This document shows, piece after piece, positions 42,708-60,809 of a DNA stretch of 64,000 bases. A program made the translations under genes and the position numbers. Each line of letters starts with the position of its first letter. Position 1 is the first letter of the stretch. The stretch is from Bacillota bacterium. Its GTDB lineage: Bacteria > Bacillota_I > Bacilli_A > Acholeplasmatales > Acholeplasmataceae. Under the pieces are notes generated by a model. It did no database searches, had not been told where the DNA came from, and worked only from the letters and a program-made list of their open reading frames with translations. The stretch spans positions 82-64,081 of the forward strand of contig JBDREH010000036.1 of NCBI GenBank assembly GCA_043819945.1. Direction: 5' to 3'.

Positions 42708-44003
42708 ATGGAAATCACATGTTTAAAGTTAAATGACTTAACCGAATCTGTTTGCGAAAACAATTTTAAGGTTCGCTATATGCTACCAAATGAAAAAGCA
42801 GAATTTATCAACAGGAAAAATAAAGTCATTCATGAACACGATATTATTGTTCCATCTATTCATCGAACAAGAGTCATTTGTCCGATTTTTTTTGAGTGTG
42901 GAGGATGTGATTTTCTACATATCAAATATGATGAGCAGCTAAGAATGAAGACTGATTTAATCTATAAACTATTTCTACGTAACAATATAAATATAAATAT
43001 ACAACCCATAGTAAAAAATGAAAAACCGCTTAATTATAGACATAAAGTTGTAGCAAGTGCTACGACTAAAAACAAGAAACTGAGATTAGGACTTTATCAG
43101 GAAAACAGTAAAATCATCCTTCCATTTTTGGATTGTTATATACAGGATAAAGATGCAAACGATGTCTTAAGGACGGTGGAAGGATTACTCAATAAGTACA
43201 AAATTCCTGCTTATGACCTTGACAAGGAAACTGGAATGATTAAGCATATCTTAATACGTAAATCATATAAGTCACAAAAAATACTAGTCGTTGTTGTTAC
43301 TCAAGGATATCTATTACCGAATGCAAAAAAAATTGCTTCAGAATTGGTAAATAGTCATCCCAGGATTCAAACAGTCATTCAAAATATTCACAATAAAAAG
43401 ACTAAACTAGTGCTTTTAGATGATGAAAAAATCATTTTTGGAAGAGGATACATCGAAGACGAAATTGATGGGATAAGCTTTAGATTATCATCAAAATCTT
43501 TCTATCAAGTCAATCCAATGCAAATGATAAAGCTTTATCATCTTACTTTAGATATGGCTGATATTAAACCTGATGATGTCGTTATGGACACATATTCCGG
43601 TATTGGTACTATCTCGTTACTTGCTGCAAAGAAGGCTAAGGAAGTCATCGCAATCGAATCAAATCTCTCATCACACCTGGATGCGATGAATAATAAAAAA
43701 AATAGCCAGATGACTAATATTTCATTTTTTAATGATGATGTTGAAAACTTCATAAGAAATTATCAAGGCAAGGTTGATTGTCTCATTATGGATCCTACAA
43801 GAGAAGGATCGTCTGAAGGCTTTCTCAATGCAGTACTAAAGCTTTGTCCTAAAAAAATTATCTATATTTCATGTGAACCAAGAACTCAAGTTAGAGATAT
43901 GTTAATCTTAATGAAATCATATGTTCCGATCTCTTTACAACCCGTTGATATGTTTTCGCAAACTGCTCACGTGGAAACTATATCATTGCTTTTACTAAAA
44001 TAG
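42708..44003 (+). CDS. rlmD: 23S rRNA (uracil-5)-methyltransferase RlmD/RumA
   Basis: CPIFFECGGCD Fe-S motif, NYRHK, SFYQVN, DTYSGIG, MDPTR, YISC, DMFSQTAHVE. Confidence 0.93.
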   Translation: MEITCLKLNDLTESVCENNFKVRYMLPNEKAEFINRKNKVIHEHDIIVPSIHRTRVICPIFFECGGCDFLHIKYDEQLRMKTDLIYKLFLRNNININIQPIVKNEKPLNYRHKVVASATTKNKKLRLGLYQENSKIILPFLDCYIQDKDANDVLRTVEGLLNKYKIPAYDLDKETGMIKHILIRKSYKSQKILVVVVTQGYLLPNAKKIASELVNSHPRIQTVIQNIHNKKTKLVLLDDEKIIFGRGYIEDEIDGISFRLSSKSFYQVNPMQMIKLYHLTLDMADIKPDDVVMDTYSGIGTISLLAAKKAKEVIAIESNLSSHLDAMNNKKNSQMTNISFFNDDVENFIRNYQGKVDCLIMDPTREGSSEGFLNAVLKLCPKKIIYISCEPRTQVRDMLILMKSYVPISLQPVDMFSQTAHVETISLLLLK

Positions 44004-44077
44004 CACTTGTTATATACTTGACACATACTTGGCAACGTTTTTTAAATCAACCCAAATATAACAAATCCAATAAAGAC

Positions 44078-44144: not shown

Positions 44145-44224
44145 GTGGAAACATATTTTAGCCTAAAAAAGCAACGAAAACAGAGGTTAACCTCGTGAGT
44201 GGAAACATATTTGCTTCTAAAAAA
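44145..44224 (+). repeat. Two 26-bp direct repeats resembling the rlmD 3' end (att-like)
   Basis: gtggaaacatattt-tagc-ctaaaaaa (44145-44170) and gtggaaacatattt-gctt-ctaaaaaa (44199-44224); rlmD has gtggaaactatatcattgcttttactaaaa from 43971. Confidence 0.75.
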
Positions 44225-44226
44225 AA

Positions 44227-45945
44227 TCAAATAATAACCACTCGATACTTCATGATTCTATCGTATTTTTCGCTTCTATAGGATCCTTCAGCAAGGGGTG
44301 TCAAGGCTTCAAATTCATGTCGTCTTTCGGAGAATTCTTTATCTCCATAATTCTTGCTACCAGCTATACAGAATACAACTTCATCAGGTTTTACGGAGAT
44401 CATCTTGAAGATGAATGATCGCAGTATATCGCCATCTACCTCTGTAATGGAATCATTGAGTTGATTCAATGTAGTTTCGATTTTTGCTAATCTTGAACGT
44501 GTATCATAGTTCGCAATGTAGTGTGCTTCAAGCTTCTGAATCTCTACTTGGTTTGTCTTTAGTTGATTCGTAAATCCCATGTACTTTTGATTGAAGTCTA
44601 ACTCGGATAAGTTTGGGTTTTTTATTTGCACATCTATCAAGTTTGATATCAATTTTTCAATGTTCTCATTTTCAGTTCGAAGCTCATCTATTCTCATCTC
44701 AACATCCGTTATTTTGATTGTTGATTGAATGATTTTTTGAATAGTTGGAATTATCATTCTATCTGCAAGAAAGACTTCATTAATCATTTCTATGGTTGCT
44801 CCTTCGAGAAGTTCTTGGTATGTGGCCTTAGCTTTACAATTTGCTTTGCCATCAATATAACCACCACATTGTTGCATGACTCGTTCAGCGGGAGTTCCGT
44901 AGTTCCAATATCTCCGTTTAAGTGTTCTACCACACTCTGAACAAATGATGAATGCCGAGAATGGATAAGTCGCATTGTATTTAGCTAAGTTTTTATCTTT
45001 GCCCACTCTAACTCGGCCACGATCCTTTCTGATCTGTTGAGCGATTAGGAAGGTTTCTTTATCGATGATAGCTTCGTGTGAATGCTCTGTATGAAATTTT
45101 GGTGCAATATCGTTATTTTGGACTTTACGATGTGTTAGGTAATCGATCGTAATTGTTTTTTGCTGAACAAGGTCACCAGTATACTTTTCGTTTTTAAGAA
45201 TACTAGCAACTGTCGACATACTCCATTTGGTTGCACCAGCACCAGTCTTAGCTCCGATGGATTCCATGTGTTTAGCAATATTTGCTGGACCCACTCCATT
45301 GATGTACATTTGAAAGACGATACGAACTGAATCTGCTTCATTCGGTTCAACAACCAGGTTACCGCCTTTTTTCTCTTTAGTGTACCCAAGAAACCTAGAA
45401 TGATTCACGATAGGGATTCCGTTATTAAAACGCTTCTGAACGTTCCATTTGACGTTCTCACTCACGTTTCTAGCTTCCTCTTGAGCAATCGATGACATGA
45501 TGGTAAGTGTAAAGTCTACTTTTGGGTCTGAGGAGTAGATGTTTTCTTTTTCAAAATAGATTTCTACATGGATTGCTCGCATTTCTCTAATATAGTTTAG
45601 GCAATCAACTGTGTTTCTTGCGAATCTTGAAATGGACTTTGTAATGACTAAATCAATCTCACCTCTACGTGCAGCATCCATCATATCGTTAAATTGTTTT
45701 CTATGCTTGGTGGAAGTGCCACTGATGCCCTCGTCTGCGTAGATTCCACAGAATATCCACTCTGGATTATTCTGAATTCTTGACGTGTATTCCTCGGTTT
45801 GGGCAATGTAACTTGTCTTCTGTTCCTCGTTGTCGGTTGAGACACGAACATAGGCACAGACGCGTTTTTTGAGCGGTTTGGGAATCAATCCTGTTGAATC
45901 GTAAGCTGGCTTTGGTTGTATAATTCTGACTTGTTTGTTTTGCAT
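44227..45945 (-). CDS. Large serine recombinase (integrase)
   Basis: AYVRVST, YADEGISGT, TKSISRFARN, recombinase domain (FLGY, ILKNEKYTG), zinc ribbon CSECG...CGG...C, coiled coil; AAGGAGG RBS. Confidence 0.95.
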   Translation of the reverse strand: MQNKQVRIIQPKPAYDSTGLIPKPLKKRVCAYVRVSTDNEEQKTSYIAQTEEYTSRIQNNPEWIFCGIYADEGISGTSTKHRKQFNDMMDAARRGEIDLVITKSISRFARNTVDCLNYIREMRAIHVEIYFEKENIYSSDPKVDFTLTIMSSIAQEEARNVSENVKWNVQKRFNNGIPIVNHSRFLGYTKEKKGGNLVVEPNEADSVRIVFQMYINGVGPANIAKHMESIGAKTGAGATKWSMSTVASILKNEKYTGDLVQQKTITIDYLTHRKVQNNDIAPKFHTEHSHEAIIDKETFLIAQQIRKDRGRVRVGKDKNLAKYNATYPFSAFIICSECGRTLKRRYWNYGTPAERVMQQCGGYIDGKANCKAKATYQELLEGATIEMINEVFLADRMIIPTIQKIIQSTIKITDVEMRIDELRTENENIEKLISNLIDVQIKNPNLSELDFNQKYMGFTNQLKTNQVEIQKLEAHYIANYDTRSRLAKIETTLNQLNDSITEVDGDILRSFIFKMISVKPDEVVFCIAGSKNYGDKEFSERRHEFEALTPLAEGSYRSEKYDRIMKYRVVII

Positions 45946-46224: not shown

Positions 46225-46341
46225 TAGGGAAAGTGCGTGCCTTATGAGCACTGAGTTTGTGACACCGCCTAACCTACCAAAAGTAGTTTATCACTATCTA
46301 AAAATTAAAACTACATGCCAGTGGCACAAACGTAATCTGTT

Positions 46342-46975: not shown

Positions 46976-47023
46976 ATGATACCACAACAAATGTTGACAA
47001 GTCAATGATAATGTCGACAATAA
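46976..47023. promoter_or_regulatory. Immunity-region promoter with paired ATGTYGACAA operators
   Basis: Minus strand: TTGACT(47005-47000)-18-TATCAT(46981-76) with TG. ATGTTGACAA at 46991-47000 and ATGTCGACAA at 47011-47020. Confidence 0.6.
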
Positions 47024-47583: not shown

Positions 47584-48504
47584 ATGGACGATAAGGGCTT
47601 TTTTCGTGAGATTATCGAATATTATTTGCAAAGATTCGATATCAAAGAGAACACCAAGCGTTCCTACGGGAAGATGCTTGCCCAGTACGCTGATTATGTT
47701 GATCGCTTGCCTAACCTACCAACCAGGCAAGATGTCATGGCTTATCGTGAACATCTCAAGTCCAGATTAAGAGCTTCATCCGTTCAAAAACACATTGTAG
47801 TGATAAGAGGTTTTTATCGATGGTACTACATTGAGGGATTTGGACCAAATGCAGCTGAAGGTGTTAAGGGTATGAAGATTGAGTCTGACTTTAAGAGAGA
47901 ATCACTTTCGCTTGAAGCAGCTACAAAACTATTAAACAGAGCGAAACGTTATGCAAGTAAGAGCATCATCGGAAAAAGAGATCATGCTCTGATCGCACTA
48001 CTATTAACAACCGGATTAAGAACAATTGAAGTTGAAAGAGCAGATGTCACAGATATCAGCTTCGTGGATGAAACTAAGGTGTTATACATCATGGGTAAAG
48101 GACACGATGAAAAAGATGCGTATGTCAAACTCTCACCAGAAGTCTATGGTTTAATCGAGGATTACTTGATTGAGCGACAAGACGAGTATAAACCACTCTT
48201 TATCAATCATACTAAACCCTACCTGGGAACAAGACTTAGAACACGAATGATTAGTATGGTGGTTAAGGAAATGTTACGTGAAATCGGGATTGATGATCCC
48301 AAATATTCTGCCCATAGCCTAAGGCATACAGCAGCTTCTTTAGCGCTGGATTTAGGTGGAGATTTAGATGCAGCACAACAATTAATGCGCCATAAAGACA
48401 TATCTACCACTAAAATCTATGCTCACAGGTTGAGCAAAGCAAAGAATCATCTAGAATGGCAGATTAGTACTGCGCTGTTTGGAACTACCAAAAAGAAAAA
48501 GTGA
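47584..48504 (+). CDS. Tyrosine recombinase (XerC/D-like)
   Basis: Catalytic set R (TGLRTIEV), K (GKG), HxxR (HSLRH), H (MRH), Y (TTKIY); N-terminal SAM-like domain. Confidence 0.92.
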   Translation: MDDKGFFREIIEYYLQRFDIKENTKRSYGKMLAQYADYVDRLPNLPTRQDVMAYREHLKSRLRASSVQKHIVVIRGFYRWYYIEGFGPNAAEGVKGMKIESDFKRESLSLEAATKLLNRAKRYASKSIIGKRDHALIALLLTTGLRTIEVERADVTDISFVDETKVLYIMGKGHDEKDAYVKLSPEVYGLIEDYLIERQDEYKPLFINHTKPYLGTRLRTRMISMVVKEMLREIGIDDPKYSAHSLRHTAASLALDLGGDLDAAQQLMRHKDISTTKIYAHRLSKAKNHLEWQISTALFGTTKKKK

Positions 48505-48515
48505 AGGGATAACCT

Positions 48516-49259
48516 ATGATTAGAGAGTTTGAACACAATGCCTATGGTAAGGTACGTGCCACGATTGTGGATGATGAGCCTTGCTTCAACCTTAAGGATC
48601 TCTGTCGCATGTTTGAAATAAAAAGCGTATCAGAAATCCGAACCAAACTGAACGACACCAGTATAAAGCTAGTGAGCGTTCCCCACGATAAAACGAATCA
48701 AAATATGTTTTTTGTAACTGCAGACCACCTATCAACCATATTCTTCCAATCCAAGCGCAAAGACGCAGAAGTGATTGGGGATTGGTTGTATCGCACAATT
48801 TTGCCTCTCTTGATCCGCTATGGTACTTATCAAATAGAAGATTTTGAGAATCCGGATAAGGTCATAGAGTTTTTAGATGAATTCCAAGAGCTGAAGGTAA
48901 GAGCAAACATCCTGGAAACAACACTAAAGATGAACACACCAAAAATCAAAGCGATTGATAATCTACTTGGTACAACAAGCTGTGTGGATTTGGATATGGT
49001 CCATGATGTGATCAAGTATAAGAATATCGGTAAAGATGTCTTATTAAAACTACTTAGAGCAACTCATGTCTTGGATGAACAGAATATTCCATTTCAAGAT
49101 TTTTGTGATAAGAAATTATTCAGAGTTGTAGAAGCGAAAGTGGTGTCTGGTGGAACAGTCATCAAATCAACCAAAACATACGTCTATAGAGGCGGTATAT
49201 CATTCATCGAAAGGATACTAAAAGAATACGATGGAAACAAACAACGGAAAGAAAAATGA
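48516..49259 (+). CDS. Phage antirepressor (BRO-N plus KilAC-like C-terminus)
   Basis: GKVRA..VDDEPCFNLKDLC BRO-N start; W....ILP.L.RYGTY; PKI...D.L...K..L..LR C-terminal part. Confidence 0.82.
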   Translation: MIREFEHNAYGKVRATIVDDEPCFNLKDLCRMFEIKSVSEIRTKLNDTSIKLVSVPHDKTNQNMFFVTADHLSTIFFQSKRKDAEVIGDWLYRTILPLLIRYGTYQIEDFENPDKVIEFLDEFQELKVRANILETTLKMNTPKIKAIDNLLGTTSCVDLDMVHDVIKYKNIGKDVLLKLLRATHVLDEQNIPFQDFCDKKLFRVVEAKVVSGGTVIKSTKTYVYRGGISFIERILKEYDGNKQRKEK

Positions 49260-49422
49260 GAATATCTATAGCATTAATGAGCTACAAGAGATACTCCAAG
49301 TTAAAAGACCGACTTTGCTTAAGTACATAAAGACCAAAAGAATCAAAGCATTCAAGGTTGGAAACCAATGGCGAGTGACTCAAGAACACTTAGATGAATT
49401 CATTCAGAAGAACATGAAGTAA
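49231..49422 (+). CDS. Excisionase-type HTH DNA-binding protein
   Basis: YSINELQEILQV...TLLKYIK.KRIKAFKVGNQWRV. Confidence 0.85.
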   Translation: METNNGKKNENIYSINELQEILQVKRPTLLKYIKTKRIKAFKVGNQWRVTQEHLDEFIQKNMK

Positions 49423-49447
49423 AGACAATTGTTAAGCCACTCCACCT

Positions 49448-49515
49448 TTACCGATAATGCTTGTGAACAGTAATGTGAACTACACACGAATATACTGCGA
49501 ACTGTATATCAAGTA
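49448..49515 (+). repeat. Copy 1 of duplicated intergenic hairpin motif
   Basis: ttaccgataatgcttgtgaacagtaatgtgaacta, 31/35 identical to 59957-59991; second block 49500-49515 is 14/16 identical to 60031-60046. Confidence 0.8.
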
Positions 49516-49597
49516 TGCGTGAAGTGGCTTTCAAGTGTCATTTAATAAAAGCCCTTATTGGGCGATTTTTAACTATACCTAGGGAAAGGAATAACTC

Positions 49598-50512
49598 ATG
49601 GCACGACCATTCAAACAAGGCTTACAATACTTTCCTCTCGACGTGAATATTTTTGAAGATGAAAAGATACAGGATCTCAATCTCGCATTTGGTTATTTGG
49701 GTGAAATCATCTACATAAGGTTACTTTCGATGATATACGCCAATGGATACTATTTGGAAAAATCAATCGCTTCACTCGCAAGGACACTCATGAAAAGTAT
49801 TGGTGCCAACTGGACACCAAACCCAATCGACATCGAAGAGGTCATTGTCTATTGTGGGAAAGTGGGTTTATTTAACTACGATCTACTTAAAGAAGATGTG
49901 ATCACATCAAAATCAATTCAAAAACAGTTCATTTTATCTACCAGAAGAAGAAAGAATACCGGTCAGGATAAATACTGGTTACTGGATGAAAAAACGATGT
50001 TGGAACTCAGTATTTTTAACAAAACATCAAAAAACATTAATGTTGACAATAATGAGGTTATTGATAACACAAATGGCGTTATTGGTAGCAATAATCAAGT
50101 TAATGCAGACAATAACCGAGTTAATGTCGACAAAAGTACACAAAAAGAAAAAGAAAAGAAAAAAGAAAGAAAAATTGATAAAGAGGATAAAGAAGATAAA
50201 GGGCCGTACGGCCTCCCTAAATTACATTTTATTACCAATTCTTTAATCAAAAACAAATACATCGATGAGTCATCTCTAGACATCATCAAATTTAACATCT
50301 TGTTTGAAGATTTAATCCATGGGTATGGATTTGAAGATGTCTTATCAGCGGTAGATTATGTGGTTAAGTATTCTAAGAACCCTAATCCACCCATAGAAGA
50401 TAAGTTTGCTTTCATGAGAGAGTCAGTTCAAACAAATTTAAAGCAATTTGAACACAGGAGGAAAACAGCCAATGAGTCATTCGAATCGTGGATTAAACGA
50501 ACCCTTCTATAA
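49598..50512 (+). CDS. Phage replication initiator (DUF4373-like N-terminus)
   Basis: MARPFKQGLQYFPLDV...D.KI..L....G..G..IY..LL..IY..GYY...ITSKSIQKQF; low-complexity linker containing iterons. Confidence 0.85.
   Translation: MARPFKQGLQYFPLDVNIFEDEKIQDLNLAFGYLGEIIYIRLLSMIYANGYYLEKSIASLARTLMKSIGANWTPNPIDIEEVIVYCGKVGLFNYDLLKEDVITSKSIQKQFILSTRRRKNTGQDKYWLLDEKTMLELSIFNKTSKNINVDNNEVIDNTNGVIGSNNQVNADNNRVNVDKSTQKEKEKKKERKIDKEDKEDKGPYGLPKLHFITNSLIKNKYIDESSLDIIKFNILFEDLIHGYGFEDVLSAVDYVVKYSKNPNPPIEDKFAFMRESVQTNLKQFEHRRKTANESFESWIKRTLL
50038..50142 (+). repeat. Five 21-bp tandem iterons within the initiator gene (probable origin)
   Basis: taatgttgacaataatgaggt / tattgataacacaaatggcgt / tattggtagcaataatcaagt / taatgcagacaataaccgagt / taatgtcgacaaaagtacaca, followed by an A-rich tract. 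Confidence 0.8.
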
Positions 50513-50903
50513 GTGGATTGATGATGTTAGAAGAGCGATGAGAAAAGAAAAAGAACTCCAGGAAAAGTTGGGGTTCTATAATATGAAGCTTATTGGGTAT
50601 AAAGGTGTTTCATATGATCGTATTGGATCTTCTGGTTCACGTTCTTCTGGAGATAGTGAGTTGTTGTTTTGGATGGATAAAATAGATAAAACTGAAAAGC
50701 GAATTACACTTAATAATCATGTCATTAACGAGTTTAAGTCATTTGCTCAAAAATTGAATATTACAGAATCAGACATTATTAACGAGTTAGTTTTCAAAGG
50801 TATAATCAATATAGACTCACCCAAAATATCAAAATCAAATCGCTATCAAATCATCAATTCAATTTCGGTAAAACTGTTAAAAAAGAATCACATTACTCAA
50901 TAG
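50472..50903 (+). CDS. Hypothetical phage protein, possibly ArpU/RinA-like late regulator
   Basis: AGGAGG RBS gives ATG 50472; coiled coil with GVSYDRIGSSGS reminiscent of the ArpU linker; last early gene by position. Confidence 0.45.
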   Translation: MSHSNRGLNEPFYKWIDDVRRAMRKEKELQEKLGFYNMKLIGYKGVSYDRIGSSGSRSSGDSELLFWMDKIDKTEKRITLNNHVINEFKSFAQKLNITESDIINELVFKGIINIDSPKISKSNRYQIINSISVKLLKKNHITQ

Positions 50904-50926
50904 ATATAACTAAATCAGAAAACTCC

Positions 50927-50955
50927 TTCGAAAAATGCCAAAAAAATGGTAAAAT
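50927..50955 (+). promoter_or_regulatory. Own promoter of the defence cassette
   Basis: TTCGAA(50927-32)-17-TAAAAT(50950-55) with TG extension. Confidence 0.6.
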
Positions 50956-50990
50956 AAAAAAAGAGTTACTCGATTTTAGGAGGGAAATTT

Positions 50991-52874
50991 ATGATAAAAG
51001 ACATAATAGAGGCTAATAAGAGTCTGGATCCGATTAATGATAAAATAAAGCAATTAAAGGAAATTTTTCCTGGTGCTTTCCAAGGACAAATGATAGATCT
51101 GGAATATATTAAAAATCAACTGAAAGAAACCAGAGTGACAAAAGAAGGATATGAGCTGAATTTTTTAGGAAAATCATATGCTAAGTTGCTAGCTGCTTTA
51201 GAAACTGAAACTGTAATTGAACCAAATCAAACGCATAATAATTTAATTGAAAATAGTAACAGTCAAAACGTTTTTATTTCTGCAGATAATCTAGATGCCT
51301 TAAAGCATTTATTGAATTCATATTGGAGAACGATCAAAGCAATCTACATCGATCCACCATATAACACTGGATCTGATGGCTTTGTCTATAATGACTCATT
51401 CTCTTTTTCAAAAGAAATGTTAATAGAGAAATTAGGGATAAGTGATGAGGAAGCTGAAAGAGTGGTTGAATTAACAAATTCAGGGAGTTCATCACATTCT
51501 GCATGGTTAACATTTATGTATCCAAGGCTTTATTTAGCGAGACAACTTCTTCGTGACGATGGTATTATTTTCATATCAATAGATGACCATGAACAAGCAA
51601 ATTTACGTATTCTTTGTGATGACATATTTGGTGATACAAACTTTCTAGCAAATATAACTCGCGCAACTGGAACACCAACTGGTGGAGGATTTGAAGCATT
51701 TGTAAATGAAGTAGATTATTGCTTAGTCTATGCAAAGGACATTAACCAAATACGTATATCTGGGCTTGCAATGAGCGATGAAGATGCAAAAATATATAAT
51801 CAACAAGATGAAAAAGGCAGATATCTAACCAGAACACTTCGACGAACTGGCGGGGAAGATAGACGTGAAGACCGACCAACTATGTATTATGCTATTAAAT
51901 CTCCGGAGGGAACTGATATTTATCCTATTGGACCAAGTGGATATGAAAGCAGATGGATTTGTGGATCAGATAAGTACAATGAGCTTCTTGAAGATGGATT
52001 AATAGAGTGGAAAAAAGTTGATGATCAGTGGAGTGTGTATCAAAAGTTCTATTTAGAAGGTAGACAAAAGCAACCAGGTAACTTATGGACTGATATTGAA
52101 GGTAATAAGAAAGCCACAAGACAAATTAGAACTCTTTTTGATTCCATGAAAGTATTTGAAACAGCAAAACCACTTGAGTTTATAACTAAAATAATAGAGC
52201 TTAGTTGCCAAGATGGTGATTATATTTTGGATTTTTTTGCTGGATCAGCAACTACTGCACATGCTGTTATGAAAACAAATTCAGAAAAGAATTGGAACTT
52301 AAAATATATACTTGTTCAACTTGATGAAACTGTTAGACAAGGTAGCGATGCTGAAAGAGCTGGATATTCTACAATAGATCAAATTGGTTTTGATAGAATC
52401 ATTAAATCATCAAAACTTGTATCTCAAGAAAACTTGCTTTCCGTAGCTGATTATGGATTTAAGCATTTTAAGGTAAAAAATGTTACATCTAATCAACTTT
52501 CGAAACTTGATTCATTTGTACCCATTGATCTTTTTGATGAAAGAGGTGTACTTGGTGAGTTTGGACTAGATACAGTACTTACAACTTGGGTAAATCTTGA
52601 TGGTTATGGACTTTCAAAAACATGGACTAAAATCGATTTATCGAGTTACGAAGCTTACCAAATGGAAAATACTATTTACCTTCTTAATTCTAATTTAACA
52701 AATAAAGCAGTTAAAACATTGCTGGAGAAATTTGAAGATGAAAATTTCACCTGCAACAAAATTATACTTTTTGGATATTCGTTTGGTATGAGTGAAATAC
52801 AGTCTGTTAAGGATAACTTAAAGCAAGTTGAAGGTATAAAACATATCACACTTGATATTATAGTTAGGTACTGA
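50991..52874 (+). CDS. mod: Type III restriction-modification methyltransferase (Mod)
   Basis: ELNFLGKSYA, DNLDALKHL, IYIDPPYNTG, WLTFMYPRL, DFFAGSATTAHA. Confidence 0.93.
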   Translation: MIKDIIEANKSLDPINDKIKQLKEIFPGAFQGQMIDLEYIKNQLKETRVTKEGYELNFLGKSYAKLLAALETETVIEPNQTHNNLIENSNSQNVFISADNLDALKHLLNSYWRTIKAIYIDPPYNTGSDGFVYNDSFSFSKEMLIEKLGISDEEAERVVELTNSGSSSHSAWLTFMYPRLYLARQLLRDDGIIFISIDDHEQANLRILCDDIFGDTNFLANITRATGTPTGGGFEAFVNEVDYCLVYAKDINQIRISGLAMSDEDAKIYNQQDEKGRYLTRTLRRTGGEDRREDRPTMYYAIKSPEGTDIYPIGPSGYESRWICGSDKYNELLEDGLIEWKKVDDQWSVYQKFYLEGRQKQPGNLWTDIEGNKKATRQIRTLFDSMKVFETAKPLEFITKIIELSCQDGDYILDFFAGSATTAHAVMKTNSEKNWNLKYILVQLDETVRQGSDAERAGYSTIDQIGFDRIIKSSKLVSQENLLSVADYGFKHFKVKNVTSNQLSKLDSFVPIDLFDERGVLGEFGLDTVLTTWVNLDGYGLSKTWTKIDLSSYEAYQMENTIYLLNSNLTNKAVKTLLEKFEDENFTCNKIILFGYSFGMSEIQSVKDNLKQVEGIKHITLDIIVRY

Positions 52875-52876
52875 TT

Positions 52877-55780
52877 ATGGGGTTAATTTTAGAAAAAGGA
52901 TTAAAACATCAAGTAAATGCATTAATTGCCCTTAACAGGGTTTTTCGTGATGTAGATATAAAAAAAGGATCTAAATCCTTCGCAAATCCTTTAATTGACA
53001 TTGAATCTGTAAATCTGAGAAGGAATTTACTGGATTTGAAAAAAGGGCTTCCTTATCAAAATGAGAATAGCAACATAATTGATGATTATTTAAATATTGA
53101 TATAAAAATGGAAACTGGAACTGGGAAAACTTATGTATATACACAATCCGTTTTTGAGTTACATCGAAATTATGGTATAACTAAGTTTATTATTCTTGTA
53201 CCATCTGTTGCTATTAAATTAGGAACAATCAATTTTATTAATTCAAGTGAGACTAGACGGCACTTTAGAGAAATGTATGGAACAGAGATTGATCTTTCTA
53301 TACTCGATGCTAAGAAAAATAAGAAAGAAATTTTTCCCAATGCAATTCGAGAATTTGTCTCTGCATCAGGTTTAATTAAGAATCAGATTAGTGTTCTTGT
53401 CATAAATAATGTTGTGTCACAAAGTTCGTTAACAAAAAACTATTCAAGTGGAGTTGAGGGATTTTATAACCCAATTGATGCTTTAAAAGCTACTAAGCCA
53501 TTTATCATCATTGATGAACCACACAGATTTGGCAAAGATCAAAAAACATTCAACTTTCTACAGGACAGAATAAAACCACAATGTATTATTCGTTTTGGTG
53601 CTACTTTTCCAGAACTTAAAGGTGGGAAGAAAGATTATCATAATCTAGTATATAATCTGAGTAGTTGTGATTCATTCAATCAAAACCTAATCAAAGGTGT
53701 AAGTGTCACACCTTTGGAAACACCTAATGGAACCAATGTTAAGTTAAAACTTAAGTCTGTTGTTAGTAAAACTTCAGCATCTTTTGAAATCAATAACACC
53801 GGTAGAAAACGCGATATTAGTATCGAGTTTAAAAAAGGTGATTCATTAGGTCTAGCCTTTGATGCATTTGCTGGACTGAATATTGATGGTATTGGTAAGA
53901 ATTTTATTGAATTATCAAATGGTCTTTTATTAAATGTCGGGCAAGAGATATTTGCTGACATTTATGATAAGTCATATCAGGAAAGCATGATTGATGTTGC
54001 ACTAGATTCACATTTTTCAACTGAAAAAAAGAATTTTTGCAGACGAGATCAAATTAAAACAATCGCGTTATTTTTTATTGATGATATTTCATCTTATCGA
54101 GGATCGACCGATCGAACACCGTACTTAAGAGAGTATTTTGAAAGTGCATTAATAGCGAAAACCAAAGAAGAAATCGCAATAATCGATAATGGCATACCTA
54201 GAGAAGTAGAATACAAAAAATTCCTTGAAGATTCATTAAAAGACATTTCAGCTACACATGGAGGATATTTCTCACAAGACAACAGTGATAAAGAGTTTGA
54301 AGAAGAAATTGAAAAAATCCTCAAAAAGAAGGAAGAAACTATTTCATTGAAATATGCTAATGGGAAATATAATACTTTTAGATTCATATTTTCTAAGTGG
54401 ACCCTAAAAGAAGGTTGGGATAATCCTAATGTATTTACAATAGCAAAAATCAGGTCAAGTGGAAGCGAAATTTCTAAAATACAGGAAGTTGGACGAGGTC
54501 TAAGATTACCAGTAAACAGTTCATTTTCTCGTGTTTCAAATGAGCAGTTCTATCTGAATTATATCGTTGATTTTACTGAAAAGAACTTTGCACAAAGACT
54601 TATAGATGAAATTAATGGAGATCTTCTTGAGCAACTGACACTTATGGAAGATGTTGTCAAAAAAGTTGCTAAAGATTCAGGCATGTCTTACTTTGGTTTC
54701 ATGGATTTTCTTGTCAAAAATAATTTTATTAATGAGGATCGGGTTGTTAATACAGAAAAAAGAGACGATCTTTTCGCATTATATCCTGATCTTATGATTG
54801 GACTAGCAAGTGGTAAGATTGTAACAACTCCGCCAAAGGCTATTATGCATGAAGTTAAAATTGATAAGACCAACTATCTGAAACTAAAAGATTTATGGAA
54901 GTCTCTTAATTCTAAATACTTTATAACATATCTACCATTAAAAGATGATGAGATAGTTAAGGCGTTATTAGGCATCCTTAAGGACGGTATTGAGAAAAAA
55001 GTTGAAGTTGTTGCAACCACTAAAACAGTTATGTTCAACTTGCTTGATGCAAACCTTGAAGATGGAGCGCAACGAACATATTCGTCAGAAGAAACTATGA
55101 AATATAATGAATTTTTAATGAGAGTAAATAAGTCAACTAGCATACCTCTTAAGTTAATTCATCACTCATTTGTCGAGTATTACAAATTATATCCTTTCAA
55201 GGGTACGCTATTCAATAGAGCATCACTGACATTTTTTGTTATGAAGATTATTGAGTGGAAAAAGGGTACATTGTTTGGTAAGTTTAAGTATGAAAAAATG
55301 GGATTAGAACCAAGTGATACAAGCATTAACGATAAGAACTGGAATTCGCACAAAACTATTACACAAGGTTTACTCGGACGTTTATATGATAAAAATAGTA
55401 AGCCACCCATAAATTATCTATATGATTTATGTGTATATGATTCAAAGATTGAGAAAGACAATATACAATCAGATGTTCAAGGAGTTGAAGTTTTCGGGAA
55501 AATTCCAAAAGGTAGTATTCGTATACCTGTAATTAATGGAGGTTCTTATAGTCCCGATTTTATGTATGTAGTTAAAAGAAATGGTGAAGTATCTGAGCTA
55601 AACTTAGTTATAGAATCTAAAGGTTACGATAAGGCAGAAGATATACCCGTAGACGAACTATTTAAAATCAAATGTGCAGAGGTGTTTTTTAAGCAACTTG
55701 AAAGTGATGGGGTAAAAGTTGAATTTAAAACTCAAATAAATGCAGATAAAATGTATAATATTATTAGGGGGTTGATGTGA
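52877..55780 (+). CDS. res: Type III restriction endonuclease (Res)
   Basis: IKMETGTGKT, DEPH, FSKWTLKEGWDNPNVF, QEVGRGLRLPV, C-terminal YSPDF...VIESKG nuclease. Confidence 0.93.
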   Translation: MGLILEKGLKHQVNALIALNRVFRDVDIKKGSKSFANPLIDIESVNLRRNLLDLKKGLPYQNENSNIIDDYLNIDIKMETGTGKTYVYTQSVFELHRNYGITKFIILVPSVAIKLGTINFINSSETRRHFREMYGTEIDLSILDAKKNKKEIFPNAIREFVSASGLIKNQISVLVINNVVSQSSLTKNYSSGVEGFYNPIDALKATKPFIIIDEPHRFGKDQKTFNFLQDRIKPQCIIRFGATFPELKGGKKDYHNLVYNLSSCDSFNQNLIKGVSVTPLETPNGTNVKLKLKSVVSKTSASFEINNTGRKRDISIEFKKGDSLGLAFDAFAGLNIDGIGKNFIELSNGLLLNVGQEIFADIYDKSYQESMIDVALDSHFSTEKKNFCRRDQIKTIALFFIDDISSYRGSTDRTPYLREYFESALIAKTKEEIAIIDNGIPREVEYKKFLEDSLKDISATHGGYFSQDNSDKEFEEEIEKILKKKEETISLKYANGKYNTFRFIFSKWTLKEGWDNPNVFTIAKIRSSGSEISKIQEVGRGLRLPVNSSFSRVSNEQFYLNYIVDFTEKNFAQRLIDEINGDLLEQLTLMEDVVKKVAKDSGMSYFGFMDFLVKNNFINEDRVVNTEKRDDLFALYPDLMIGLASGKIVTTPPKAIMHEVKIDKTNYLKLKDLWKSLNSKYFITYLPLKDDEIVKALLGILKDGIEKKVEVVATTKTVMFNLLDANLEDGAQRTYSSEETMKYNEFLMRVNKSTSIPLKLIHHSFVEYYKLYPFKGTLFNRASLTFFVMKIIEWKKGTLFGKFKYEKMGLEPSDTSINDKNWNSHKTITQGLLGRLYDKNSKPPINYLYDLCVYDSKIEKDNIQSDVQGVEVFGKIPKGSIRIPVINGGSYSPDFMYVVKRNGEVSELNLVIESKGYDKAEDIPVDELFKIKCAEVFFKQLESDGVKVEFKTQINADKMYNIIRGLM

Positions 55781-58659
55781 TGAAGTCGATTGAAGAGTAT
55801 TTATTATATCTTGATGAGCAAAAGTTTACTCCTGATCAAAAAAGAGCCATTGTAACTTCAAGTAAAAATGTTCAAATTATAGCTTGCGCTGGATCAGGTA
55901 AGACTAGTACTATTGTATCTCGTATCATTTTTCTCATTGTCTCAGGAGTCAGTCCTTCAGAAATTGTCGCTATCACATATACTGAGAAAGCAGCAGCTTC
56001 ACTTAAACAGAAGATATATCAGGAATACGAAAAGGCTATGGGAACATTAGAAGGCTTATCCGATTTATATGTTGGCACAATTCATGGTTATTGTTTGTTC
56101 ATGCTTCAGGAATTTACAGTAGATTTCAAAAATTATGATATTCTTACTGAGATTCAAGCTAAACTACATATTAAGGCAAAACGTTGGGAAAATGGGCTTA
56201 ATGACTGCATGTACTATGTAAAAGAAAATCCGATTCCAAAAAAACTTGTTGGTAAATCTTATTCTAACTGGGAACAATTTAGTGACAGAGTTTCCGCATA
56301 TAAACAATTTCTCGATATTTCTCGCGAGTATGGAATCAAAAAACTTAACGATCCGCACTTAGAAGAATTGATTGCAAAATATGAATTTTCTCTAGCTAGA
56401 GACAAGTACTTTGATTTCACATCAATTCAAATTACTGCACTTGAATATTTCAAGAAACAGTATTTTGATGAGTATCTAAAAAAAATAAAACATTTGATTG
56501 TTGATGAATACCAAGACGTTAATGAAACGCAAGAAGAGATTATTAGATATTTTTATGACCATGGAATTACTGTTTGTGTAGTTGGTGACGATGATCAAAC
56601 TATTTATGAATGGCGTGGAAGTCGATTGAAATATATTAAGGATTTTTCAACTAGGTATTCGAATGTTGAATCTGTTGAACTATCATTGAATTTTAGAAGC
56701 AGCGTAGGTATTACCTCTACAGCTGAGACCTTAATAACAAATAATAATAATCGTCTTTTGAAGACAATGGACAGTGCCAATAACCAGAGTTATGTTAAAG
56801 GTGATATTTTAGGTATATCCTTTAATTCTAGGGAAGATGAAGTCCAATTCATAATTGACAAAATAAATCAAGTAACTGGAAGTAAGTTCTCTCAAAAAGG
56901 TAATGAGTGGGGACTAGGTTATGATGACATTGTAATATTAGTCAGTTCAGTAAAAAAAGTAAATCAACTTATAGAAAAGTTAAATGACTCTAAATTACCA
57001 TTCATTGTCGAAGGAACGCAAAATCTTTTTGAAACCCCCGAAATTATAGCTATTACCGAAACTTTTGAGATGTTGATTTTTCACTATATGCAAATGCTAA
57101 GAACTGGTGTTGAAAATGCAGATAAAATTAAAGCAGCAATAAAGAAAGCACAACAAGAAGTTGTTGATCGATGGAAAGTAGTTGTTTCAGCAGACGAAAA
57201 CCAAATTAACAACGCACTTATTAGTTTTAGAGACGAGTTTCTTGATGCTGTAACTAACCCAAATAAAGGTTATGAATACACGATTCAAAAGAATCTTCAT
57301 GATTTACTATTTGGACTCGGCGCGATGTCAGATAAATTGGATGATAAAGTTTACTATAATATTGGAAAATTCACAGAAATGATTAATGATTTTGAGAAGA
57401 TATTTCTAAAAACCTTTCCAATTGAGCGAATGGAAAAATTTCAAGAATTCCTTATTCAAGATGCGAAGAACATGTATCCTGAAGGATGGATGTCACCCCG
57501 TTTTAATCTAGTAAAAACTTTGCGAGTTATGACTTATCACCAAGCAAAAGGATTAGAGTTTCCCGTGGTATTCCTTCCGTTCTTAACGAAGGATTCTACT
57601 TTTCCTCTTACCCGCGGTGGTGGTGGTATCACAGCATGGTCAATAATTCATAACGATGCAATTAAACAAGAGTTTAATGATAAAGAATCACACCATAGAG
57701 TATTCTACGTAGGAATGACAAGAGCAGAAAAGTTTTTATTTATGACCCGTTCTCCTGGATTCTCAGATAGTGGGAAAACTCAGTATTTGACAGAAGCGAA
57801 ACAATTTATTCAAGCATCTCACTCTGAGTATGTTACTCCAGCTACATGTCTGGACATCAGTTATGAAAAATCGTCAATTGCAAAGTATTCTAATGACGAA
57901 GTCATTACTTTAAATTTTAGCTTGCTTAAGGATCTCTTTGAATGCGGATATAAATTTAAACTATCTAATGTGTTTGGTTTGTACCAACCATTGAATATTC
58001 GTATGGGGTATGGTCAATCAATTCATAGCATGTTAGATTACGTTCACAAGAATTGGCAAAAACTGAATCTTGATGATGAAAGCGTAATATGGGGAATAGT
58101 GAAACGGTTCATGCACTTACCTTATGCATCACCTAAATTGATTCAAGCAGAAACCAATAAAGCATTTGACAGATTACAAAAATACATTATCAATAATAAG
58201 CAAAGATTTAAAAACATTGTTTTTTCCGAGAAGAGAATCGATTTCAAGTTCTCAGATTACTTTTTTATTGATGGAAGAATTGACTTGATAAGAGATGATG
58301 TCAATAAAGAACTGACTATAGTTGATTTCAAATCAGAGTCTGCTTCATTGAGCGCTGATCAAATTAAGAATCAACTCATGATTTATGTTTTAGGTTATGA
58401 AAACATGAAAAGCGAGAAAATATCTTACATTGAATCATATGATATCAATGAAACAAAACCAACGAGAATACCAATATTTGATGAAGATAGAGATGGATTT
58501 CTCAAGGAACTCTCCAAGTGTGAAACAACAATTAAAACAGGTAAGTATTTACGTCACTGTGATTTAGATCCAAATCATAAAAATAGACATTGCAAAGATT
58601 GTTTTTTAAAGAATGTATGCTTAACAGGGAAAAATCCTCCATTAGCTACTTCTAGATAA
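55777..58659 (+). CDS. UvrD/REP SF1 helicase fused to C-terminal PD-(D/E)XK nuclease with Cys motif
   Basis: AGSGKT, DEYQD, GDDDQTIY.WRG, NFRS, TYHQAKGLEF, YVGMTRA; then ECG..., GRIDL...VDFKS, QL.IY, CKDC....C. Confidence 0.9.
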   Translation: MMKSIEEYLLYLDEQKFTPDQKRAIVTSSKNVQIIACAGSGKTSTIVSRIIFLIVSGVSPSEIVAITYTEKAAASLKQKIYQEYEKAMGTLEGLSDLYVGTIHGYCLFMLQEFTVDFKNYDILTEIQAKLHIKAKRWENGLNDCMYYVKENPIPKKLVGKSYSNWEQFSDRVSAYKQFLDISREYGIKKLNDPHLEELIAKYEFSLARDKYFDFTSIQITALEYFKKQYFDEYLKKIKHLIVDEYQDVNETQEEIIRYFYDHGITVCVVGDDDQTIYEWRGSRLKYIKDFSTRYSNVESVELSLNFRSSVGITSTAETLITNNNNRLLKTMDSANNQSYVKGDILGISFNSREDEVQFIIDKINQVTGSKFSQKGNEWGLGYDDIVILVSSVKKVNQLIEKLNDSKLPFIVEGTQNLFETPEIIAITETFEMLIFHYMQMLRTGVENADKIKAAIKKAQQEVVDRWKVVVSADENQINNALISFRDEFLDAVTNPNKGYEYTIQKNLHDLLFGLGAMSDKLDDKVYYNIGKFTEMINDFEKIFLKTFPIERMEKFQEFLIQDAKNMYPEGWMSPRFNLVKTLRVMTYHQAKGLEFPVVFLPFLTKDSTFPLTRGGGGITAWSIIHNDAIKQEFNDKESHHRVFYVGMTRAEKFLFMTRSPGFSDSGKTQYLTEAKQFIQASHSEYVTPATCLDISYEKSSIAKYSNDEVITLNFSLLKDLFECGYKFKLSNVFGLYQPLNIRMGYGQSIHSMLDYVHKNWQKLNLDDESVIWGIVKRFMHLPYASPKLIQAETNKAFDRLQKYIINNKQRFKNIVFSEKRIDFKFSDYFFIDGRIDLIRDDVNKELTIVDFKSESASLSADQIKNQLMIYVLGYENMKSEKISYIESYDINETKPTRIPIFDEDRDGFLKELSKCETTIKTGKYLRHCDLDPNHKNRHCKDCFLKNVCLTGKNPPLATSR

Positions 58660-58672
58660 GTAGGTGACATTA

Positions 58673-59905
58673 ATGAATTTAAACATCCAATATAGTGATT
58701 ATAAGAAGAGTATCGACATACATGGTACTGTTCTTTATCCTGCAGTAATGGTTGCACCGGTGCAAAAAGATGTTTTAAACTGGTTAATTGATGGAAGAAA
58801 AAATCTAAAGATATTTGACCCTTTCCACGGATCAGGTACAGCATTATATGAAGCAGCTAGTATCGAACCAGAAATAGAATTGTTTGGATATGACATAAAT
58901 CCTCTTGCATCACTAATAACGCAGACTAAATTACAAGGAATTGAGATTGCTACGATCGATTCAGATATCAAGTCATTGGAACTTATGTTGCAGTCAGAGT
59001 ATAAATATCCGACACTATCTTTCTACAAGTCTGAAAAATGGTTCAGAAAAGATATTTTAGAAACTTTATCAGAGATCCGTTATGCAATTATGGAAGTTAC
59101 AAGCAAGAGAAATAGACAATATTTCTGGGTAATGCTTTGTGATATCATTCGCTATTATAGCAATACCAGAAGTAGTACTTTTAAACTTCATATGAAAGAA
59201 AATAAGAAGATTGAAGCATTAAAAAACTTGATTATAAAGGATTTCCTAAAGAAAATTAAATCTTCTTTAAAATTCTACAAGAAAAACCTCACTAATTTTG
59301 ACTTAAAAAAAGGGAATTCATTGGAGTTAATTAAAGACCTTGATGATAAATCAATGGATATTATTGTTACGTCACCTCCATATGGAGACAATGCAACAAC
59401 TGTAACATATGGGCAATTTTCATATTTGGCTTTGTCAATAATCGATAAAAATGACATACCTTTTGAAGGTTGGGAGTTATACAACTGTCAGATACTTGAT
59501 TCATCTAGCATGGGGGGAACCCAATCTTTGTCATTAAGTAATGAAAATAGAAAATATATTCAATGGTATTTAAATAGAATTAAACAATCAAAAAGGAAGA
59601 AAGTAGAAAGATTCTTTGCTGATTATTTTGATTTTCTTGATAGTGCTGCACGTGTTTCTAAAGAATATATTGTAATGACTTTGGGGAATAGAACTGTTGA
59701 TAGAGTGAGGATTAATTTGGCAAAAATAACAGTCAAATATCTTCAGGATAAGGGTTTTAACTTTAAGAAAATCTTATCACGCTCAATAGTATCTAAAAGA
59801 ACGCCTGATTACATATTGGTTAACAATTTAAAAACGACGACTATGACGAAAGAATACATAGTTATAATGGAAAAACCCCTACAAACGATTGTAGCAAATG
59901 CTTAA
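58673..59905 (+). CDS. DNA amino-methyltransferase (SPPY type, probably N4-cytosine)
   Basis: H...YPA.M, FDPFHGSGT (motif I), TSPPY (motif IV); AGGTGA RBS gives ATG 58673. Confidence 0.85.
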   Translation: MNLNIQYSDYKKSIDIHGTVLYPAVMVAPVQKDVLNWLIDGRKNLKIFDPFHGSGTALYEAASIEPEIELFGYDINPLASLITQTKLQGIEIATIDSDIKSLELMLQSEYKYPTLSFYKSEKWFRKDILETLSEIRYAIMEVTSKRNRQYFWVMLCDIIRYYSNTRSSTFKLHMKENKKIEALKNLIIKDFLKKIKSSLKFYKKNLTNFDLKKGNSLELIKDLDDKSMDIIVTSPPYGDNATTVTYGQFSYLALSIIDKNDIPFEGWELYNCQILDSSSMGGTQSLSLSNENRKYIQWYLNRIKQSKRKKVERFFADYFDFLDSAARVSKEYIVMTLGNRTVDRVRINLAKITVKYLQDKGFNFKKILSRSIVSKRTPDYILVNNLKTTTMTKEYIVIMEKPLQTIVANA

Positions 59906-59956
59906 GTTGCGATTAAAGTAGCAATTCTACATTGTTGAATATTCATATTGTCTTAG

Positions 59957-60046
59957 TTACCGGTAATACTTGTGAACAGTAATGCCAACTATGAGACAAC
60001 ATATCAACAATTATCGATTAAGTAGTTGTCAACTATATAACAAGTA
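59957..60046 (+). repeat. Copy 2 of duplicated intergenic hairpin motif
   Basis: ttaccggtaatacttgtgaacagtaatgccaacta; enclosed by ttgtctta/tgagacaa. Confidence 0.8.
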
Positions 60047-60103
60047 CTATAGCCTAAAACATAAAAATAGCGATGCTTCATAAATTATTGTGCCGCTGGC
60101 ATG

Positions 60104-60270
60104 TAGACAAAAGTTGACATATTTCATATACTACAATTAGCGTGGAATACTGGCTTTAGTTGAAGCCTAGAAGTGAGAGACTCTCAAATTTGAGGGTTTC
60201 TTTTCTTTTGCAGAAAGAGTTGTAGTATTCAACCCTTGGATAACTTCAGTTTTTGATAAATTAACTGAAC
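60104..60270 (+). promoter_or_regulatory. Late-operon promoter and structured leader with premature terminator
   Basis: TAGACA(60104-09)-17-TATACT(60127-32); hairpins 60152-60167, 60177-60200 plus U-tract, 60245-60269; gaatact/agtattc pairing (60145-51 with 60224-30). Confidence 0.55.
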
Positions 60271-60290
60271 CCTGAAAGGTTGGAATCGAT

Positions 60291-60809
60291 GTGCCAAAGG
60301 TACTGGATACATATCAGCAATGGGAGGCTGATGGAGTACTTGACGAAAGAATAAAGAGTGTTCAAGACATGGTTGCTAGGCGGATTATCCAAAAGGATAT
60401 CGCAAAAGCTCTAAATATAAGTGAAAACACAATGATTAAATTGAAGCGATCTCATCCCAGATTAAATCAAGCATTCATCAATGGCGATGATGAACTGAAG
60501 TATAAACTCATGGATGCATTGTTCCAACGAGCTGTTGGGATGGAGTATGAGGAAGTACAAACCATCATTGAAGAAACCTCATCGGGAACAAAGAAACGAC
60601 TTGTTAAAACCAAGAAGAAATCTCTACCCGATTTTAATGCACTCAAATACTTACTGATAATCAAGTTCGGACGTGAATACAACGAACGCAAAGAAGAAAT
60701 AGACATCATGCTCAAACGCATAGAAAAAGGCGAGGAAACTTGGATTAATGAACATAGTGATGAAGAAACCCTCGGAGTTGTCAATATACGAAAACAACCC
60801 AAGAAATAA
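60291..60809 (+). CDS. Terminase small subunit-like / DNA packaging HTH protein
   Basis: N-terminal HTH (QKDIAKALNIS), ALFQRAVG.EYEEV...K.TKK...PD..AL.YLL pattern of phage TerS-like proteins. Confidence 0.6.
   Translation: MPKVLDTYQQWEADGVLDERIKSVQDMVARRIIQKDIAKALNISENTMIKLKRSHPRLNQAFINGDDELKYKLMDALFQRAVGMEYEEVQTIIEETSSGTKKRLVKTKKKSLPDFNALKYLLIIKFGREYNERKEEIDIMLKRIEKGEETWINEHSDEETLGVVNIRKQPKK

Follow-up and report, generated by a model that had tools for sequence, protein, structure and literature searches.

Phased repeat arrays at the replication and late-operon boundaries of an Acholeplasma-type prophage as candidate docking sites for a small excisionase-family protein

Introduction

What reads a short DNA element that stands twice in one prophage, once before the replication initiator gene (rep) and once before the late operon? 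The element lies in a stretch of 64,000 nucleotides (nt) from a Bacillota bacterium of the family Acholeplasmataceae (GenBank assembly GCA_043819945.1, contig JBDREH010000036.1, positions 82 to 64,081 of the forward strand). This whole stretch is called the window below, and positions are counted from its first letter. An initial annotation, made from the letters alone, described a duplicated 35-nt element whose few differences appeared to preserve an RNA stem, and proposed a cis-acting RNA or, as the alternative, a pair of recombination sites. Comparison with related prophages leads to another answer: each copy is the 5' end of an array of direct repeats spaced by one turn of the DNA helix, and such an array is probably a site where protein docks on duplex DNA. 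The best candidate for that protein is a 63-residue member of the excisionase family, encoded immediately upstream of the first copy.

Anatomy and conservation of the arrays

The 35-nt match between 49448-49482 and 59957-59991 is real and not a product of chance. As first described, 31 of the 35 positions are identical; a 28-nt degenerate version of the element has no other match in the window (100 shuffles give an expectation of 0), and there is no third copy of the duplicated element in the 1.58-Mb genome. What the first description did not contain is that both copies run on as seven phased repeats, and that a third array, of three repeats, lies at 44003-44035 on the minus strand. The 35 nt are the head and the first two repeats of a longer structure, a composite of ∼90 base pairs (bp) that opens with the head, yTACCGrTAATnC, and continues without gaps as seven direct repeats, one of 12 nt and then six of 11 nt.

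49448..49538, plus strand: array A, with its head at 49448-49460 and repeats starting at 49461, 49473, 49484, 49495, 49506, 49517 and 49528
59957..60047, plus strand: array B, with its head at 59957-59969 and repeats starting at 59970, 59982, 59993, 60004, 60015, 60026 and 60037

This anatomy also explains a second block of similarity, 49500-49515 with 60031-60046. Its 14 of 16 identical positions are confirmed, but the block is not colinear with the first: it is offset from it by 52 nt in copy 1 and by 74 nt in copy 2, and the shift of 22 nt is that of two 11-nt units. The block is therefore a likeness of repeat to repeat and not colinear homology, and the match of repeats 4-5 of copy 1 to repeats 6-7 of copy 2 accounts for the change of register.

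The contigs of relatives yielded 41 distinct arrays, and the repeat statistics were drawn from 40 distinct arrays (280 repeats). No array aligned contains an indel. The repeat consensus is tGt(C/G)AA(G/C)T(a/g) around a core (C/G)AA(G/C)T, whose AA is retained in 278 of the 280 repeats. The information content is periodic, with an autocorrelation of 0.52 at a lag of 11 nt and 0.39 at 22 nt, and pairwise identity descends from 0.92 in the head through 0.81 at the five core positions to 0.54 in the spacers. Direct repeats at one-turn spacing, a defining property of the operator arrays bound by winged-helix recombination directionality factors (RDFs), are thus present here (seven 11-nt repeats, 40 arrays). 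The arrays fall into two classes: type A follows the stop codon of the gene for the 63-residue protein and precedes rep, and type B precedes the late leader or the promoter of a cargo gene. None of the 41 is a hybrid of A and B.

The carriers of the element are metagenome-assembled genomes (MAGs) of Acholeplasmataceae and Acholeplasma oculi. A 16-nt core is found in prophage contigs of ∼10 other species of the genus, usually at least twice per assembly, and also in viral and metagenome contigs; a BLAST search of both intergenic regions against a phage collection gave no match. In a wider phage group, with Rep proteins 51-56% identical, the same gene order and two head copies recur with the core CCGrTAATn(0-2)TGTG, so that the head is conserved across a wider group of phages than the phased words. 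One base of the head varies in lineages I, II and III: copy 1 has G there, and copy 2 has C or A. Two further matches to the 22-nt head pattern fall within a repetitive archaeal coding region of a Nitrosopumilus MAG (L049), with no array after them; we take these matches to be chance.

Two simple identities for the head were considered and rejected. On reading the variants against a sigma-70 promoter, GGTAAT and AGTAAT forms lack the A at -11, TAATxC forms lack the T at -7, and there is no consistent -35 element. A core of the dif or lox kind is likewise not apparent, as no dyad is conserved across lineages.

A third array in the attachment-site arm

The position of the third array is as follows.

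44003..44035, minus strand: three-repeat mini-array TTGCCAAGTAT GTGTCAAGTAT ATAACAAGTGC, in the P' arm of attL, downstream of the serine integrase gene

It emerged from a search of the whole genome with a position weight matrix trained only on the repeats of other genomes, in which phased triples were slid over both strands (3.16 million windows). The top-scoring triples are in array A (31.6), in the mini-array (31.6) and in array B (23.3); outside the phage no site exceeds 22.1. Phased arrays beyond these three are absent from the 28 kb of prophage in the assembly. The crossover can be placed at ∼43968-43996 from the same prophage end inserted in another species, which puts the mini-array a few tens of bp away, on the phage-derived side. 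Its sequence is identical in a second genome (G078:C66). It also agrees at 27 of 31 positions with the last repeats of the same phage's B array, spacer included, and this shared spacer indicates that the mini-array and the end of array B are homologous. A search of the assembly for attR or a second att core found none; the prophage runs off the contig end.

A candidate binding protein

Directly upstream of array A, in this prophage and in all relatives, stands a very small gene.

49231..49422, plus strand: 63-amino-acid excisionase-family winged-helix protein, the candidate array binder; the gene ends 25 nt before array A

The protein belongs to Pfam family HTH_17 (E = 2.5e-15) and passes the curated NCBI model TIGR01764, ‘excise’ (38.5 bits, cutoff 28.8). 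An AlphaFold (AF2) model, with a predicted local distance difference test score (pLDDT) of 82, has the order beta-alpha-alpha-beta-beta-alpha, and the top Foldseek matches of this model are BldC bound to the smeA-ssfA promoter, the Xis of mycobacteriophage Pukovnik, and RdfS; the root-mean-square deviation from Pukovnik Xis is 1.2 Å over 47 residues. The alignment used for folding was shallow, because a homologue search found only relatives of at least 89% identity. Searches of PDB sequences with this protein and with the TerS-like protein described below gave nothing useful. One further candidate model, the AlpA-type antiterminator of Pseudomonas aeruginosa, was set aside: AlpA is larger and Q-like, and builds a ring within the RNA exit channel from its N-terminal segment (PMC9371919).

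A cognate small excisionase-family protein encoded in the same element is the other property of RDF-type operator arrays that is found here. The lineages add a parallel between protein and DNA. Lineages I and IV have in common the putative reading residues TLLKYIK and GNQWRV and an 11-nt phasing of sAA; lineages II and III have other residues at the reading positions, and clean 11-nt phasing of AA was not found in them.

Small proteins are known to work on such repeats. RdfS, BldC and Cox form filaments on DNA, and Xis, RdfS and BldC bind head to tail on direct repeats with one turn of DNA per protomer (PMC11963761). For Apl of phage 186, six-bp operators in direct repeat are spaced by 10-11 bp; there are seven of them at pR-pL and five more at attP, and binding needs at least three adjacent sites (PMC7498355).

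Strict, indel-free phasing at 11 nt, a co-located excisionase-family gene and a mini-array in the att arm together point to recognition by protein on one face of the DNA. That the arrays are protein-binding arrays on duplex DNA is accordingly the preferred reading, with a probability of roughly 0.8.

Recognition on DNA or on RNA

The competing possibility is that the head and the words are read on the plus-strand transcript, in the manner of nut or put sites or of the repeats bound by TRAP, so that polymerase could read through the terminator ahead of rep and that of the late leader. The words may then be bound by a multimeric protein that overrides both terminators. The features that bear on this are the hairpins and promoter-like sites near the two arrays.

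49547..49570, plus strand: weak terminator-like hairpin GCCC-TTATT-GGGC with a T-run, between array A and the ribosome-binding site of rep
60088..60106, plus strand: conserved box TTGTGCCGCTGGCATGTAG, just before the late promoter, holding the hairpin TGTGCC-GCT-GGCATG (60089-60103)
60104..60132, plus strand: late promoter-like site TAGACA-17-TATACT, conserved in relatives, between array B and the terminator
60175..60212, plus strand: strong intrinsic terminator of the late leader, whose arms vary while pairing is kept through G-U wobble (CTCTC/GAGGG against CTCTC/GGGAG)
60291..60809, plus strand: first late gene, encoding a TerS-like helix-turn-helix protein, with the conservative start ATG at 60369 (146 residues)

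Terminator-like hairpins do lie downstream of both copies, as had been stated, weak after copy 1 (49551-49570) and strong after copy 2 (60175-60202). The stem of the weak hairpin is kept in relatives while its loop changes from TTAT to AAAA, and a terminator-like hairpin of different sequence occupies the same place in lineages II and III. Copy A stands between the early genes and a weak terminator, and copy B before the promoter-like site that precedes the late terminator. The hairpins, a late leader laid out like PR'-6S-tR' of lambda and the common orientation of all arrays with transcription are features that recommend an RNA. The place of copy B is a difficulty: array B lies ∼57 bp upstream of the late promoter-like site, and is therefore absent from the transcript of that promoter. 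The late leader and two cargo genes give three settings in which a B-type array stands in this relation, ∼35-60 bp ahead of a promoter-like sequence.

The inner hairpin drawn through the 35-nt copies fares worse. A reading of both copies confirms that their four mismatches sit on the drawn stem, but the stem does not hold in relatives. Among 22 distinct heads, pairing is lacking in 13 for pair 7-29 (the one first called compensatory), in 6 for pair 12-24 and in 6 for pair 9-27, and the covariation score of 0.046 is at the level of shuffled sequences (mean 0.045). The hairpin is rejected on these grounds, and the four differences that seemed to preserve structure are best read as coincidence. 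No Rfam family matches at E ≤ 1 over 40000-64000 (0 matches), as had been anticipated. What endures of the proposal is a conserved cis element that stands at the entry to rep and again at the entry to the late operon; its hairpin does not.

A second, outer helix encloses array A and has a better record.

49434..49445, plus strand: 5' arm of the outer helix of array A, pairing with 49519-49530
49519..49530, plus strand: 3' arm of the same helix, overlapping repeat 6 of array A
Relatives in lineage I: 5' arm AGCTGCTTCAC, 3' arm GTGAAGTGGCT
Lineage IV: 5' arm AAACCGACATTTC, 3' arm GAAATGTCGGTTT
L070: 5' arm TCATATACCAC, 3' arm GTGGTATATGA

Outer stems had been drawn around each copy, and both are present in the window as 8-bp complements. 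That of copy 1 is matched by pairing in two other lineages; that of copy 2 is not conserved, and there is no conserved outer helix around type B arrays. Shuffling the upstream arm 1000 times gives a measure of how readily such stems arise. A stem of the same length appeared 8-26 times for three of five sequences of lineage I, 176 times for the window's own copy and 353 times for L076, in which the homologous arm pairs over only 6 bp; the counts are 2-4 for lineage IV and 48 for L070. One-sided changes in the arms of lineage I yield G-U pairs on the plus strand. Because the helix is conserved as pairing in three lineages, an RNA-level role for copy 1 is possible.

For the arrays as a whole, an RNA target is distinctly unlikely. 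Exact, indel-free 11-nt spacing over 40 arrays is a signature of duplex DNA and is unlike known RNA-binding repeats, and the mini-array in the att arm has no rationale as RNA. The only metatranscriptome from the study containing the phage shares none of the sampled words.

The docking model and the points that weigh against it

The preferred reading can be extended to a model of how the prophage would use its arrays. The 63-residue protein would be produced from the early lytic operon and would bind the words cooperatively and head to tail, bending or coating the DNA, as Apl of phage 186, Cox of P2, Xis proteins, RdfS and BldC do at their sites. With a spacing of exactly one turn, the words all face the same side of the helix. 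Three sites of action are predicted, (i) array A, just before the weak terminator and rep, (ii) array B, upstream of the late promoter with its short terminator-ended leader, and (iii) the three words in the P' arm, adjoining the integrase gene. Induction would thereby be coupled to replication, late transcription and excision. The effect of binding could be repression, activation or a roadblock, and the head may serve as a nucleation site or as the site of a second factor. As a whole, with the 63-residue protein as the binder, the model seems to us an even bet on the present sequence comparisons, and the role of the predicted binder at att commands less confidence than that.

Several points weigh against the model. 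The direct link between the protein and the arrays is adjacency only. The head is conserved even where the reading residues of the HTH_17 protein differ, so it is probably read by something else, and the head would then have a reader of its own, distinct from the 63-residue protein. At the attachment site, the known RDFs of serine integrases mostly act through protein contacts and not through DNA arrays. The mini-array, moreover, occurs with one integrase allele only (in this genome and in G078) and was not found beside the 77%-identical integrase of another relative (G084); it could be a recombination relic, in view of its apparent homology, extending into the spacer, with the last part of array B. 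Docking on DNA also has no need of the helix around array A, which stands in the same place with unrelated sequences in three lineages (I, IV and L070). Finally, all three arrays are co-oriented with local transcription, which would also fit recognition on RNA.

If the model holds, one 63-residue protein and one short word would link excision, entry into replication and late expression in a little-studied family of Mollicutes prophages, and an excisionase-type DNA array beside a serine integrase would be unusual. Anything new is most likely to lie in the head, whose conservation reaches further than that of the repeats.

Other candidate readers in the prophage

The gene neighbourhood offers three further proteins that could be the reader. 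The window belongs to a 71.7-kb contig of a genome with 35% G+C, and the prophage, which is of Acholeplasma type, runs from ∼43970 onward; its insertion point is the 3' end of a gene for a TrmA/RumA-like methyltransferase. Its genes stand in the order serine integrase, cI-like repressor, cro-like gene, Xer-like tyrosine recombinase, antirepressor, 63-residue HTH_17 protein and copy 1; then replication initiator, a 151-residue protein without assigned function (unk151), type III restriction-modification, UvrD-nuclease, methyltransferase and copy 2; and then TerS-like protein, ParB-methylase, MetK, HNH protein, TerL, portal and protease. All close relatives keep the order cro, Xer, Ant, HTH_17 gene, array A, rep, unk151, variable cargo, array B, late leader and TerS-like gene.

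44227..45945, minus strand: large serine integrase, at the left end of the prophage
47584..48504, plus strand: Xer-like tyrosine recombinase of the early operon, with the catalytic R, K, H, R, H and Y present
49598..50512, plus strand: replication initiator of the Lin1244_N family, with five 21-nt repeats and an A-rich tract at 50030-50200
50991..59905, plus strand: variable cargo between the arrays, comprising type III Mod, type III Res, a UvrD-PD-(D/E)XK helicase-nuclease and a methyltransferase

The first of these proteins is the initiator itself. Array A could be a set of iterons, forming the origin or the rep operator, and array B a second Rep cluster, as incC and incA flank repA in P1 or as in oriL and oriR of SPP1. 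Tandem direct repeats do lie directly upstream of rep in every relative, two clusters flank the gene, and AT-rich DNA follows the arrays. A better origin candidate is found inside rep: repeats of 21 or 33 nt with an A-rich tract, an architecture kept in lineages I, II and III and closer to the usual origin of such initiators. In the window these are five 21-nt units (GTTAATGyNGACAATAA) plus the A-rich tract at 50030-50200, and matching in-gene repeats with an A-rich tract occur in lineages II and III; rep genes of no more than 52-55% identity show the same plan with other units. An in-gene origin is likely from this pattern. Repeats of 11 bp with ∼5 informative positions are also shorter than typical Rep iterons. 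Neither the three-repeat copy in the att arm nor the further B-type array that some phages have before their cargo cassette (three arrays in the G078 assembly) suits a pair of Rep clusters, and iterons are on balance an unlikely explanation.

The second protein is the Xer-like recombinase. The heads could be its sites, with the excisionase-like protein assisting, and could serve to load or exchange cargo or to excise rep together with the cargo. The idea is attractive because an intact recombinase gene and an excisionase-type gene share one operon and the copies, as direct repeats, bracket the variable cargo. As in the alternative of the initial annotation, the copies do flank rep and a variable defence cargo; a search for a recombinant A/B junction found none, and the head has no conserved dyad core. 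Homology with the G084 prophage ends at 50685 and restarts at 59958, one base inside head B (which starts at 59957), so that the right junction of the cargo coincides with the start of this head. A groundwater metagenome contig joins 50684 to 59963; this matching break reflects relatives with other cargo. The same upstream cassettes pair with different array subtypes, and extra arrays flank single cassettes: some phages have an additional B-type array before a single cargo cassette, and in the G078 assembly one prophage has three arrays, its A and B copies being on separate contigs.

Several observations make this reading quite improbable. No dyad-symmetric core of the head is conserved across lineages. 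In lineages I, II and III a systematic difference at one position of the head separates copy 1 from copy 2, which would block strand exchange if that base lay in the overlap, and the 41 arrays include no A/B hybrids. A check for the deletion or circle product found no joint of 49475 to 59985 in public metagenome contigs of four runs, though contigs hide rare forms and the check has low power. Ordinary homologous recombination with selection would also be expected to leave its junctions where a constrained element begins. It is very doubtful on this evidence that the heads with their phased repeats are working junctions, acted on by two proteins of the early operon (Xer-like recombinase and excisionase-like protein) when defence cargo, and perhaps rep with it, is loaded, swapped or excised; the defence hotspot would in that case be an integron-like locus, serviced by site-specific recombination.

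The third protein is the product of the first late gene, which might dock on the arrays in a pac-like or regulatory wrap. The gene is always first after the late leader, its product matches phrog_309 (small terminase), and small terminases wrap phased repeats. A separate packaging module (HNH, phrog_1066, TerL) lies 6 kb downstream, and neither array A nor the att mini-array has any packaging logic, which makes such a role hardly credible. The conservative start of the gene rests on the G084 homologue, of 146 residues, and on the GTG start codon, which reads GTC in L019.

Cargo, relics and late leader

The cargo hotspot (50685-59957, from the unk151 gene to array B) measures 2.7-9 kb, with counterparts in L058, L060-L068, L123, L125 and L138. 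Its contents change from relative to relative and include type III, type I/IIG-like and other restriction-modification or defence-like sets. The element marks the exact right border of this restriction and defence hotspot, and is a landmark for cargo in Acholeplasma-type genomes and metagenomes. An A. oculi isolate genome (L056, 14400-15650) holds a prophage relic adjoining the same rumA-like gene. The relic is made up of two GTGGAAAC repeats, a single cargo gene that retains its promoter, a B array in full, and a late leader that breaks off within the terminator; GTGGAAAC repeats are also found beside the integrase gene in the window (44145-44224). Alongside the large serine integrase at its end, the prophage encodes the Xer-like recombinase within the early lytic operon; this recombinase is conserved in all four lineages at 46-100% identity. 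An S-adenosylmethionine synthetase is also encoded by the prophage itself, and its DNA methyltransferases number three or four, one of them fused to ParB-N (63223-64000 of the window, and L004).

The late leader (60085-60368) is more conserved than the arrays. It consists of a hairpin TGTGCCGCTGGCATG, the promoter-like site, a short stem-loop and the terminator, after which come ∼160 nt of nearly invariant untranslated sequence; the invariant stretch includes a mini-ORF (open reading frame) of seven codons (MEYLTKE) behind a perfect GGGAGG. A search of the leader against Rfam gave no match. The 19-nt box TTGTGCCrCTGGCATGTAG at 60088-60106 has an inverted copy at 46311-46329, downstream of the cI-like gene, identical at 18 of 19 positions, and both boxes read along the direction of local transcription. 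A shorter word, ATGTNGACAA, occurs five times in the window against 1.1 expected, at 46991 and 47011 (the cI/cro switch), 50040 and 50124 (the rep repeats) and 60101 (the late promoter). The copies at the switch lie inside two palindromes, TTGACAAGTCAA and TTGTCGACAA; these are possible repressor operators that the late promoter would reuse.

Comparison with known systems

Two classes of RNA and replication elements have a similar outward plan. Lambda nutL/nutR and HK022 putL/putR are likewise two near-identical copies placed before terminators, at the entries to replication and to late or delayed-early genes. They are RNA elements with a defined hairpin, whereas the hairpin of the present copies is not kept in relatives, copy B precedes its promoter and the words are phased with the helix. 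The plasmids P1 and F (incC-repA-incA) also have clusters of direct repeats on both sides of the initiator gene. Their iterons are 17-22 bp long and Rep-bound, in contrast with the 11-bp repeats, the separate in-gene origin candidate and the att copy of the present prophage.

The closest structural matches of the 63-residue protein are Pukovnik Xis (4J2N), RdfS (8DGL) and DNA-bound BldC (6AMA), with a sequence identity of only 13-26%. These proteins serve tyrosine integrases or developmental regulation, whereas the attachment site here belongs to a serine integrase, and no conserved head is known next to their arrays.

The nearest parallel in layout is offered by Apl of coliphage 186 and Cox of P2, which use direct-repeat words 10-11 bp apart, seven at a transcription control region and fewer at att. 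There, one small helix-turn-helix protein of the early lytic operon is both excision factor and regulator (PMC7498355), and the 63-residue protein is its candidate counterpart. The systems differ in that Apl and Cox sites lie between face-to-face switch promoters while the present arrays stand before rep and upstream of a late promoter; in that a conserved head of ∼28 bp precedes the repeats here and the recombinase at att is of the serine type; and in that the 63-residue protein, whose binding is predicted, is of the MerR-like ‘excise’ class and not of the Cox/Apl class. Apl, Cox, Xis and BldC already exemplify the well-known principle, in which one-turn repeats dock a small winged-helix protein. 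The apparent novelty lies in the joining of a head to seven repeats, in the place of this composite at the borders of replication and defence cargo, in its association with a serine integrase, and in the host group in which it occurs.

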